A DNA stretch of 64,000 bases from Patescibacteria group bacterium (GTDB taxonomy: Bacteria > Patescibacteriota > Patescibacteriia > UBA1558 > GWA2-36-10): contig JBAYIQ010000001.1 of assembly GCA_041665545.1 (NCBI GenBank), positions 222,448-286,447 on the forward strand, read 5' to 3'. Made by a program: the position numbers and the translations under genes. The notes under the pieces are model-generated. The model was not told the origin of the DNA. It saw only the letters and a list, made by a program, of their open reading frames with translations, and did no database searches. Below are positions 7,833-9,736 of the stretch, in pieces. Numbering within the stretch: position 1 is the first letter of the stretch; each line of letters starts with the position of its first letter.

Positions 7833-8534
7833 TTAATCAATAAATTTAAAACTATCTACCATGGCTTGGTCAAAAGTAATAGCGCCCTCTTTATCCCCCA
7901 AAAATCTATAATCCATCCCTAGCTCCACAAACATTATTTTATTTTTTTCTGGATAATACTTCATAACCGTTGAACTATTAATAAAACATCGCGATTCATC
8001 CCAATTCTTTCCATCGGAATGCACGACTATATCATAAACACCAACCTGAGCACTCTCTTTCTTTTCGTTGATTTGACACTGATCACCAGCACCACCATAA
8101 AATTCTTCGACAAGCCCATTTAAATCTTGACTATTAAAAATATTATTCTTGATTATGATCTTTAACGCAACATAATCTTGTGTTAAATCATTATTTCTTT
8201 TGATGCACTCCTTATTATCAATATCATAACTGTACGCTTGACCTACATAAATGACATTATCTTTGGCCAAAATTTTTGTTTCGACTGGAGCATATAAAGT
8301 GCGATAATTGCCGTCTATGAATTTACAAGCTCCATCTTGTATAAAAATTCTGTCTGGATATTTGAATTCCACACCAAATTCTTCATTGCGATAAGTTTGC
8401 CAATCTGGTTCAACTATATTTTGATTGTTAGAATAATTAGTATTTTTATTATTTTTTTGCAATACAACAATTACCAACATTAATAAAATTATGATTATGC
8501 TTAATAAAATTACTTTTTTATTGACTAAGTTCAT
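7833..8534 (-). CDS. Hypothetical membrane-anchored protein with an N-terminal TM helix; candidate immunity protein for the upstream CHAP toxin
   Basis: 233 aa ORF with N-terminal hydrophobic segment LLSIIIILLMLVIVVL. It lies 11 nt downstream of the mini-RHS-CHAP gene and 30 nt upstream of the giant rhs gene, all co-directional. No recognisable enzymatic motifs. Confidence 0.5.
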   Translation of the reverse strand: MNLVNKKVILLSIIIILLMLVIVVLQKNNKNTNYSNNQNIVEPDWQTYRNEEFGVEFKYPDRIFIQDGACKFIDGNYRTLYAPVETKILAKDNVIYVGQAYSYDIDNKECIKRNNDLTQDYVALKIIIKNNIFNSQDLNGLVEEFYGGAGDQCQINEKKESAQVGVYDIVVHSDGKNWDESRCFINSSTVMKYYPEKNKIMFVELGMDYRFLGDKEGAITFDQAMVDSFKFID

Positions 8535-8545
8535 GATTTATATAA

Positions 8546-9736
8546 TTAAAATATTTTTCTAAAAAATTGCCTAGTGTCTTGCCACATTCTTTGGAAAAAA
8601 GATAACGATTGCGCTCTAGCTGACGGACCAATAGCCGAAACCTGGTTATTGGTGGCTGAAGTATTTTTATTTACCGGACTAAGCCAACCAGCCATAGGTA
8701 CATTCTTCTGTCTAATAACACTATAACCTTCCTCAGTTTTGTCAATATCATACCTAGATAAGGCTTTATTACTGGCATTTTGATCCATAATTTCTACATA
8801 ACCTTTGTTGGTCTGATTATCAAAATTAGCCTCGCTTACCACCATAACGTGGCCATATGGACCACTGGTCCAAAACAATAAATCTCCAGTTTGGGGTAAT
8901 AAAAATTCTTGACCATTATTGTGTTGAACTACGGTATAAATTGATCCAGCTTCTGCTAAATTTTTATTAATAGTGTCTACTATATTCCACATATTTTTAG
9001 CAGTGCCCACTGAACCAACATCATTTATGCCATAAACCTCTGACCAATAACGCTTGGCATACTCTACGCAACTACGAGCTTCGCGAGCGCTACCAATACC
9101 ATTGTAGTAAGCAGTCACACCATTGAACTGCCCCATTTCATCGCCAATCTGCCAGCCATTTTCCGGCATAGGATTGACAGTGGCTGTGGATAAGCCAAAA
9201 AAATCGATAAAGCTGATTGGATTATTGTAGGCGTAGCTGTAGCTGTTCAGGCCTTGGGGATTAGCCAAAACACTGCTCAAGTCACTCAACAATAAGGGAT
9301 CAATACTAGAAAATCTACCCAACAGCGGATCATAGTAGCGCTGGCCAAAATACTGCCAATCAGTTTCTTGATCATTCTCTTTGCCAATAAACTGACGTTG
9401 ATTATCGGCACCCCCAATTCGACACTGCAAAAGCCCAAATGATTGATAATCATTTTGTTCTTTTATATTGCCGTTTTGATCAAGCACCGCTGTTACCGAA
9501 CCCAAGTGATCGTACAGAAAATAATCTAGGGCCTGATTATTCATTTCAGCAATTTGCTGGCCGCCCAAAAATATTTTTACTTTGGTCTGGCCATTTTGAT
9601 CTACTTGAAAATATTGATCAATGTATTTTTCTTGATCAAGCACAATTTTTTGCACTGCCGCAAGGCTTGAATTTACTATTATCAAAGAACCGACTATTAG
9701 CATTACACCAACCCCAAAATTGCTTTTCTTTTTCAT
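8546..9736 (-). CDS. Stand-alone mini-RHS protein: signal peptide, one YD-repeat unit, RHS core C-terminal motif and a C-terminal CHAP-family cysteine peptidase/amidase domain
   Basis: 396 aa. N-terminus MKKKSNFGVGVMLIVGSLIIVNSSLAA is a signal peptide. YDHLGSVTAVLDQNGNIKEQNDYQSFG aligns with the giant protein's core segment. RHS core hallmark QYFGQRYYDPLLGRFSSIDP is followed by NPQGLNSYSYAYNNPISFIDFFGL, a DPxGL-like cleavage region. The C-terminal roughly 200 aa carry a CHAP-like Cys...His arrangement (ARSCVEYAKRYW ... GDLLFWTSGPYGHVMVVSEA). Confidence 0.75.
   Translation of the reverse strand: MKKKSNFGVGVMLIVGSLIIVNSSLAAVQKIVLDQEKYIDQYFQVDQNGQTKVKIFLGGQQIAEMNNQALDYFLYDHLGSVTAVLDQNGNIKEQNDYQSFGLLQCRIGGADNQRQFIGKENDQETDWQYFGQRYYDPLLGRFSSIDPLLLSDLSSVLANPQGLNSYSYAYNNPISFIDFFGLSTATVNPMPENGWQIGDEMGQFNGVTAYYNGIGSAREARSCVEYAKRYWSEVYGINDVGSVGTAKNMWNIVDTINKNLAEAGSIYTVVQHNNGQEFLLPQTGDLLFWTSGPYGHVMVVSEANFDNQTNKGYVEIMDQNASNKALSRYDIDKTEEGYSVIRQKNVPMAGWLSPVNKNTSATNNQVSAIGPSARAQSLSFFQRMWQDTRQFFRKIF

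Follow-up and report, generated by a model that had tools for sequence, protein, structure and literature searches.

A small RHS-core protein with a CHAP tip and a membrane-anchored partner: a probable toxin-immunity cassette in Patescibacteria

Orphan rhs-CT/immunity modules of Enterobacteria combine a core-coding fragment, an alternative tip and an immunity gene, and are found near full-length rhs genes, downstream of the main gene and with no start or export signal of their own. In the accounts of RhsA and Rhs1, an aspartate dyad and a PxxxxDPxG(W/L/F) site are described, both needed for release of the tip (PMC8765631; PMC8636562). Papain-like wall hydrolases of the Tox-NlpC/P60 type are described as tips on RHS toxins (Zhang et al. 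2012; PMC3482391), and the MafB proteins of Neisseria are presented as having a signal peptide, a short conserved N-terminal domain and a variable C-terminal toxin, with an immunity gene downstream (PMC4436062). In this study, we analysed a 64,000 nucleotide (nt) stretch of DNA, hereafter the window, from a Patescibacteria group bacterium (GCA_041665545.1, contig JBAYIQ010000001.1, 222,448-286,447 of the forward strand). We were concerned with three same-direction open reading frames (ORFs) on its minus strand, which encode a 396 amino acid (aa) protein (the mini-RHS), a 233 aa protein (the partner) and a giant RHS protein. ORF calling reproduced exactly the coordinates and lengths given in a preliminary description of this DNA, with an ATG as start of the mini-RHS, as well as the gaps of 11 nt between mini-RHS and partner gene and of 30 nt between partner and giant gene; upstream of its ATG, the mini-RHS frame is open for 4 codons only. 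That description had offered two readings of the mini-RHS, a secreted CHAP toxin using an RHS-derived pre-toxin module and a tip reservoir recombining with the giant gene, and the former is the best-supported reading of our data. In our judgement, mini-RHS and partner probably form a toxin-immunity cassette belonging to a Sec-secreted polymorphic toxin family, in which a cage-less RHS core serves as the handle.

The mini-RHS is composed of a signal peptide, about 70 aa of beta-hairpins or last shell strands, the RHS core, the CHAP tip and a C-terminal helix. In its N-terminus (MKKKSNFGVGVMLIVGSLIIVNSSLAA followed by VQ), a positively charged n-region leads into a hydrophobic h-region and an AxA-like site, as judged by the hydropathy heuristic on which all our signal-peptide calls are based. 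The hairpin segment (aa 28-96) is homologous to the last shell strands preceding the core in giant RHS proteins, and AlphaFold2 (AF2) places strands at aa 43-108 with a predicted local distance difference test score (pLDDT) of 58-74. Profile searches of the gene at 8546-9736 then returned both expected domains above their cut-offs: TIGR03696 (Rhs_assc_core, NCBIfam) on aa 97-182 (E 3.7e-18; 65.8 bits, cut-off 32.5), and Pfam CHAP (PF05257) on aa 221-320 (E 6.2e-10; 39.9 bits, cut-off 26), the latter with its catalytic Cys and His present. No match to RHS_repeat (PF05593) was found in the mini-RHS at E ≤ 0.1 in Pfam, whereas the giant neighbour matches this profile with E 1e-31; the mini-RHS is thus without a YD-repeat beta-cage, and the only ~150 aa that lie between its signal peptide and its cleavage motif hold no cage-forming YD array. 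In these respects the preliminary description of a stand-alone secreted RHS core and CHAP protein, too short for a cage, was right.

Within the core we found R133, D146-P147 as part of GRFSSIDP, and the ending P173-x4-D178-FF-G181-L182, from which the self-cleavage site is predicted to be L182/S183. This ending (P173-ISFI-D178-FF-G181-L182) is of the PxxxxDPxG(W/L/F) type with F in place of P after the aspartate, the family consensus being DPxGL. For the tip, the predicted structure supports the profile result, with an AF2 pLDDT of ~90 over aa 190-356 and a Foldseek match to the CHAP endolysin PlyGRCS, while the N-terminal part matched RHS cores; the closest sequence match of the family profile in the PDB, as regards the tip, was the CHAP domain of glutathionylspermidine amidase (E 2.5e-6). 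In view of this last match, peptidoglycan is no more than a putative substrate of the tip, and amidase or endopeptidase a putative activity. Behind the CHAP domain, the C-terminal tail has a consensus, SFxQRxWxxxKxFFxxxF, that is kept in the family, and AF2 models a helix at aa 380-395. Since the same tail is found on the CHAP-tipped giant RHS protein of L029 (L-numbered names denote the loci of relatives that were compared with the window), we count it as part of the tip module.

Among 5.8 billion proteins searched, we found ~38 full-length CHAP-bearing homologues of 334-418 aa, with 34-73% identity to the mini-RHS, and an exact public match titled 'RHS repeat-associated core domain-containing protein [Patescibacteria group bacterium]'. 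Homologues with at least 43% identity keep the architecture of CHAP with YD-shell and core, and those at 34-35% are a divergent CHAP sub-clade. In an alignment of 33 family sequences, R133, Y134, D146, P147, P173, D178 and G181 of the core and C223 and H296 of the CHAP domain are invariant (33/33), L182 and S183 are at least 90% conserved, and the conserved E315, D318, Q319 and N320 are candidates for the third catalytic residue of CHAP. The invariant D146 and D178 constitute the catalytic aspartate dyad, as the family profile aligns their motifs with the SSDP and LLDPDGL|M motifs of TccC3. A K/R n-region followed by a hydrophobic h-region is present in most of the 33 members. The hairpin segment is missing from shorter members, and the shortest of all, at 312 aa (L008) and 334 aa (L006), are reduced to signal peptide, dyad-bearing part of the core and CHAP.

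Comparison with the close relative L001 gave ratios of non-synonymous to synonymous substitution (dN/dS) of 0.06 for the hairpins and 0.08 for the core, at a dS of 0.45-1.4. Synonymous sites thus drift freely while the protein is kept, which points to selection on the protein and not on a DNA recombination handle. The mini-RHS is a member of a conserved gene family, not debris or a fragment. This family is part of a broader class of small RHS-core proteins that is common in Patescibacteria and Acidobacteria. Arrays of 3-6 small core-plus-tip ORFs (~300-600 aa) from these two groups were seen in L026, L054, L067, L076 and L078, where they sit downstream of, or between, giant RHS genes.

The same comparison revealed how tip and partner evolve. 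DNA identity to L001 is 85-95% from 10300 to ~9100, falls to 48-70% from ~9100 to ~7860, and returns to 88-93% at the start of the giant gene, with the boundaries approximate as they were set in bins of 60 nt. At the protein level, the flanking NUDIX and CYTH genes are 94% and 92% identical and aa 1-200 of the mini-RHS 82-98%, in contrast to 45-62% for aa 241-396 and 45% for the partner, which therefore co-varies with the CHAP tip against flanks of 92-94%. Within the divergent block dS is saturated (2.4), suggesting import of an older allele rather than local acceleration. Tip and partner have been replaced as a unit between close relatives.

At its N-terminus the partner has a transmembrane helix (aa 4-31), behind which a globular domain containing conserved cysteines is modelled with a pLDDT of 90.5 as a PsbP-like fold. 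This model weakly resembles the immunity proteins Tsi3 and TplEi, with modest scores and a generic fold. A Pfam scan of 45 members of its type, here called type A, gave no family, with PsbP_2 appearing below threshold only, and no sequence relation to any named immunity family. As expected of an extracytoplasmic immunity protein, it is encoded next to the toxin candidate on the same strand and is targeted to the extracytoplasmic side by its transmembrane helix. The earlier proposal that this is a candidate immunity gene gains from its tight linkage, from its divergence together with the CHAP tip, and from the change of partner type with tip type that is seen across the family. As a separate observation, L011 (1487-4602, also L012) carries four consecutive membrane-anchored paralogues of PsbP_2-like or type A-like kind (317, 197, 246 and 259 aa) with no CHAP gene nearby, which could be a poly-immunity locus or a sign of other roles of the domain.

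Turning to the other minis, the protein of L020 has an N-terminus nearly identical to that of the CHAP-bearing P0014 but a Peptidase_M15_4/VanY tip, that of L028 has an alpha/beta-hydrolase tip with a weak match to lipase models, and those of L023, L025, L027 and L033 combine the same scaffold with tips of no assigned family. M15, lipase-like and unassigned tips are thus found on a common N-terminal scaffold, together with partners of their own, and a small ORF starts within -20 to +22 nt of the mini in 17/17 minis checked. Every partner seen with a CHAP-tipped mini is membrane-anchored. Type A partners occur in the window, L001, L003, L008, L014, L017, L019, L030 and L093, type B partners in L004, L005, L006, L015 and L016, and further families in L022 and L080, so that related CHAP tips are combined with four or more partner families unrelated to one another. 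M15 and lipase-like tips go with other transmembrane-anchored proteins, and in 5/8 of the minis with unassigned tips the partner is without a transmembrane segment. The CHAP tip, for its part, is common to both mini clades (A and B, as defined below), and also ends the full-size RHS proteins of L029 and L046, with a transmembrane protein encoded downstream of each; it is a mobile RHS payload. In L008, the end of a transposase gene immediately precedes a CHAP gene that is truncated but has retained its type B partner; this disrupted cassette is followed by an intact CHAP mini of 312 aa and its type A partner. The corresponding stretch (L008:1-2987, also L009 and L010) shows the C-terminal end of the transposase-like ORF (YNNHRIHSGLKMPP) abutting the truncated gene, of which the last 134 aa remain, and has the appearance of tandem cassettes with the first one disrupted.

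The giant protein, which resembles a fusion of TcB and TcC, contains SpvB, TcdB_toxin_midN, FG-GAP and Laminin_G_3 domains, RHS repeats and a core of its own at aa 2447-2546. Its aa 2381-2543 are homologous to aa 32-178 of the mini-RHS (36% identity, E 2e-26). At the DNA level, blastn aligns the two genes at best over 75 nt, with 71% identity (9386-9312 versus 396-322), and their longest exact match is 13 nt. The codons for PQ(G/N)LNSYSY at 9259-9233 and 230-204, where DNA homology had been thought visible, agree at ~19/27 nt when counted by eye, which is no more than the shared peptide requires, so that the homology had been overstated. As a recombination tract, the shared DNA was rejected on these figures.

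The order mini, partner, giant recurs in L001, L003, L014, L019, L020 and L027, with the giant gene within ~4 kb downstream. Mini and partner have no giant gene within 10 kb in L004 and L005, and the minis of L006 and L015 follow the giant gene instead of preceding it; in L004, L005 and L006 the gene pair holds a syntenic position adjoining TrmB. The placement upstream of a giant gene, to which the preliminary description had drawn attention, is therefore real in the window but not unique: the locus is one member of a conserved family in which linkage to a giant is frequent but optional. A promoter and terminator scan of 7500-10400 found no terminator-like site on the minus strand between the three genes, and promoter-like sites did not exceed shuffled expectation; this is consistent with co-transcription and otherwise uninformative. 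The giant gene is probably co-transcribed with mini-RHS and partner, and is context for their system rather than a required component of it. In L003, a 98 aa ORF of the DUF559/MTES_1575 type (Vsr-like endonuclease; 12053-12349) lies between type A partner and giant, and has no counterpart in the window. The giant gene itself is a mosaic when compared with L001:12157-17868, with 68% identity over the first 40 aa, ~20-45% over most of the N-terminal 1200 aa and 85-95% in the shell (window aa ~1890-2330); the L001 giant is ~740 aa shorter before the core, and the low identities may partly reflect misalignment.

To relate the cores of minis and giants, we built a neighbour-joining tree from 112 columns of the common core region, which as a distance tree of a short region is suggestive only. 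In this tree the 'A' minis group with the 'A' giants in 186/200 bootstraps and the 'B' minis fall on the same side as the 'B' giants (a grouping that was not bootstrapped), while minis A and B together were monophyletic in 0/200. Because minis group with giants of their own lineage and were never monophyletic as a whole, the tree suggests that giant RHS 3' ends gave rise to the mini scaffold on at least two occasions, after which it evolved as an independent gene. Within lineages, the mini core is not closest to the core of its own-locus giant, which speaks against ongoing gene conversion; conversion keeping each mini core like its own giant was rejected on this ground. With neither usable DNA homology nor a core closest to that of the own-locus giant, the suggested tip reservoir recombining with the giant gene was not borne out.

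Mechanistically, the system could work as follows. The conserved handle would consist of the signal peptide and a C-terminal RHS end, that is a few shell strands and the aspartyl-autoprotease core, with no beta-cage. The 396 aa pre-protein would be exported by Sec and lose its signal peptide, whereupon the retained core may cleave at about L182/S183 and free a CHAP peptidase or amidase with a cationic amphipathic C-terminal helix. Such release is suggested by the invariant residues together with purifying selection. The freed enzyme would cut the exposed peptidoglycan of neighbours, which may be competitors or the host of an episymbiont. The partner, which its N-terminal transmembrane helix presumably fixes to the outer side of the producer's membrane, would bind the amidase and neutralise it at the site of the producer's own wall synthesis. 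Secretion, cage-free self-cleavage, the peptidoglycan substrate and neutralisation by the partner are thus all put forward as inferred steps. The giant gene is a frequent but dispensable neighbour, of the kind that gave rise to the handle.

Several observations weigh against this model. To our knowledge, all solved RHS structures show the core as a plug inside a cage. In the window protein, DFFGL stands in place of DPxGL and the two aspartates are 32 residues apart, not ~22. AF2 gives a pLDDT below 50 for core aa 115-182, too low for the model to inform on the geometry of the dyad or on any zymogen-like contact with CHAP. Some signal-peptide minis have cytoplasmic-looking partners, and for those minis simple secretion and diffusion would be no explanation. 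With 1130 representatives at E ≤ 1e-3, the family of the type A domain is large, and among five type A members sampled from the partner side a CHAP gene lies directly upstream in two, the others being in a paralogue array, solitary, and on a short contig; 'type A domain = CHAP immunity' therefore does not carry over as a rule to the whole 1130-member family. Furthermore, hhalign detected no homology between type A and type B partners (probability 11%), although both have similar C-terminal SFKF/SIKF endings, and the CHAP domains that they accompany do not segregate cleanly by partner type: identity across types is 54-65% in 6/7 full-length minis and 48-65% with L008_312 included. Unrelated partners on such similar CHAP domains are unusual for a specific inhibitor. 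These points temper the assignment of the partner as an immunity protein but do not overturn it.

Three other explanations deserve consideration. The large and often CHAP-unlinked type A family, and the unrelated partners of similar CHAP domains, would both suit a housekeeping or symbiosis enzyme, either an autolysin of the bacterium's own, serving division or wall turnover, or a host-wall tool for attachment or feeding, with the PsbP-like partner as regulator or activator. CHAP domains are common in autolysins and endolysins, as the Foldseek match to PlyGRCS recalls, and the syntenic position beside TrmB in L004, L005 and L006 suggests vertical inheritance. Nevertheless, discrete replacement of tip and partner between near-identical flanks is not expected of an autolysin, the same handle bears M15, lipase-like and other tips with matching partners, full-size RHS toxins, too, carry the CHAP tip as their C-terminal payload, and the truncated CHAP gene of L008, beside a transposase end and with its partner kept, follows a pattern typical of immunity genes; we consider this explanation unlikely. 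The homology of the mini-RHS to the last shell strands and core of the giant raises the question whether it is an orphan rhs tip or reservoir, that is a silent or semi-silent leftover of a displaced giant 3' end which exchanges its tip via core-coding DNA. Small core-plus-tip arrays downstream of giants, common in related genomes (L026, L054, L067, L076), the CHAP minis downstream of giants in L006 and L015, the same CHAP tip on the true giants of L029 and L046, and the grouping of mini cores with giants of their own lineage (186/200 for clade A) would all be in keeping with it. However, the window offers no recombination substrate in the form of a shared core-coding tract, the mini-RHS starts at an ATG of its own with an N-terminus resembling a signal peptide, its gene precedes that of the giant in the window and in no fewer than six further loci, its core is not closest to that of its own-locus giant, its low dN/dS at substantial dS reveals selection at the protein level, and the pair is kept with no giant within 10 kb in L004 and L005. 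On balance, a mere reservoir appears quite improbable.

A third possibility links the three genes functionally, with the mini core docking onto, or loading into, the giant SpvB/TcdB/RHS protein, which would then deliver CHAP and entry-requiring tips. The operon-like spacing with no terminator, the order of mini, partner and giant that recurs in seven loci, including the window, with different tips, and the co-clustering of mini cores with own-lineage giants agree with this, as does the poor modelling of the core on its own, as if it needed a partner; the cytoplasm-type partners of some minis likewise imply an entry route. Yet the giant has a complete core and tip of its own, so that no plug site is left vacant, no giant is near the pair in L004 and L005, and we know of no case in which an RHS cage is loaded in trans, all of which makes docking highly improbable. 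The toxin-immunity cassette thus remains our preferred reading. It leads to a broader idea, which we advance tentatively and hold to be somewhat doubtful: that the Rhs core may be an autonomous, cage-independent self-cleaving pro-domain, and the C-terminal 80-150 residues of RHS proteins a compact secretion-and-release handle in Patescibacteria. If true, this handle would serve a Sec-exported toxin family that has arisen from giants at least twice and carries CHAP, M15, lipase-like and other tips with cognate partners, and ultra-small episymbionts would attack the envelopes of hosts or rivals without an injection machine.

Table 1. Coordinates of the features discussed, as positions in the window
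Feature	Position	Strand	Basis or remark
Mini-RHS gene, 396 aa shell-less RHS-core/CHAP protein	8546..9736 (stop included)	-	ORF, CHAP match, TIGR03696 match
Signal peptide (predicted), aa 1-27	9656..9736	-	sequence reading, hydropathy, AF2 helix aa 7-25
Beta-hairpin segment, aa 28-96	9449..9655	-	aligns with giant aa 2381-2446
Rhs-associated core, aa 97-182	9191..9448	-	TIGR03696, E 3.7e-18
CHAP papain-like peptidoglycan amidase/peptidase tip (predicted), aa 183-356, C223 + H296	8669..9190	-	Pfam CHAP, AF2, Foldseek
Linker of low complexity, then conserved amphipathic helix at the C-terminus, aa 357-396 (SFFQRMWQDTRQFFRKIF)	8549..8668	-	family alignment, AF2
Partner gene, 233 aa membrane-anchored PsbP-fold protein (type A), candidate immunity protein	7833..8534	-	ORF
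Gene of the giant TcB/TcC-like RHS protein (secreted), at least 2600 aa, 3' end outside window	3..7802	-	ATG 7802, frame open to position 3, domain matches
Hyper-divergent cassette versus L001: CHAP from ~aa 212, tail, whole partner gene	7860..9100	-	DNA identity drop
First CYTH + NUDIX pair	CYTH 10191..10772, NUDIX 9777..10184	-	kept upstream of mini-RHS in L001, L002
Second CYTH + NUDIX pair	CYTH 13110..13685, NUDIX 13704..14240	-	

Beyond the cassette, the window holds further genes of note (Table 1). The two CYTH and NUDIX pairs, at 9777-10772 and 13110-14240, flank a minus-strand gene (11474-13126) for an ABC-F-like protein of 550 aa, in which two ABC_tran ATPase domains and no membrane domain were detected. 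With a G+C content of 47-51%, against 27-33% in the genes on both sides, this gene is a strong outlier and possibly a recent acquisition or a strongly constrained gene. Minus-strand genes at 14367-25362 form a small set resembling a non-ribosomal peptide synthetase system, with a 4'-phosphopantetheinyl transferase, a class-I glutamine amidotransferase, a thioesterase, a 609 aa adenylation and carrier-protein didomain and a second AMP-binding enzyme, and a 7TM-GAF histidine kinase among them. Such a set is unusual for the reduced genome of a bacterium of the candidate phyla radiation (CPR), and similar AMP-binding and HisKA_7TM neighbours are present in L001 and L003. Several of the loci compared, including L013 (from the same contig as L001), L015, L016, L018 and L019, have gene content of Patescibacteria type but are titled 'uncultured Gammaproteobacteria bacterium', and are probably mislabelled entries of metagenome-assembled genomes.

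How, then, does the mini-RHS compare with the systems described so far? With the canonical Rhs and TcC toxins (P. protegens RhsA, P. laumondii Rhs1, TcdB2-TccC3, YenC2) it shares a core with Arg, Asp and Asp and a PxxxxD-x-x-G-L site ahead of a variable C-terminal toxin, followed by a small cognate gene; tip and partner are exchanged as a unit, and the same CHAP tip occurs on the full-size proteins of L029 and L046. It differs from them in lacking the YD-repeat cage, so that the tip cannot be encapsulated, in having DFFGL for DPxGL and a longer spacing of the aspartates, and in relying on a plain Sec signal (predicted) in place of PAAR/VgrG of type VI secretion systems (T6SS) or a TcA translocator. 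Orphan rhs-CT modules are similar in that a core fragment is fused to a tip with a partner, and similar arrays exist in related loci, but the mini-RHS starts from its own codon and bears a signal peptide, precedes the giant, has no DNA tract in common with the giant's core, is under purifying selection at the protein level and is kept without a giant in L004 and L005.

With the T6SS pairs Tse1/Tae-Tai and Tse3-Tsi3, and with Tox-NlpC/P60, the cassette has in common a papain-like Cys/His tip and an adjacent protein targeted to the wall compartment, and the PsbP-like fold of the partner recalls, weakly, Tsi3 and TplEi. In contrast to these pairs, the route appears to be secretion by Sec and not injection, the producer being a CPR bacterium for which we assume a single membrane; the partner is anchored by a transmembrane helix and unrelated in sequence to any named immunity family, and at least four partner families go with related CHAP tips. 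The layout of the mini-RHS family is that of Neisseria MafB, except that its conserved domain, in place of DUF1020, is a remnant of the RHS core in which the autoprotease signature is intact, and that the lineage is Patescibacteria. In the literature searched, of which our coverage was partial so that novelty is not proven, we found no description of a toxin family made of a signal peptide and an RHS core only.

Taken singly, the RHS core autoprotease, wall-hydrolase tips, extracytoplasmic immunity, orphan modules and cassette swapping are each already known, and the family is an extension of known biology, not a new principle. Its interest lies in what it makes accessible. Short proteins annotated as 'RHS repeat-associated core domain-containing' tend to be set aside as fragments or orphans, and at least some may be functional secreted toxins. 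The family also supplies candidate antibacterial or host-attack effectors, together with protective genes, in CPR/Patescibacteria, whose interactions with hosts and competitors have been little explained so far. Finally, throughout the mechanistic studies of RHS and Tc toxins, the aspartyl-protease core is regarded as a plug acting within a beta-cage, and a cage-less family in which the catalytic signature is under strong purifying selection makes it testable whether the core can cleave alone.

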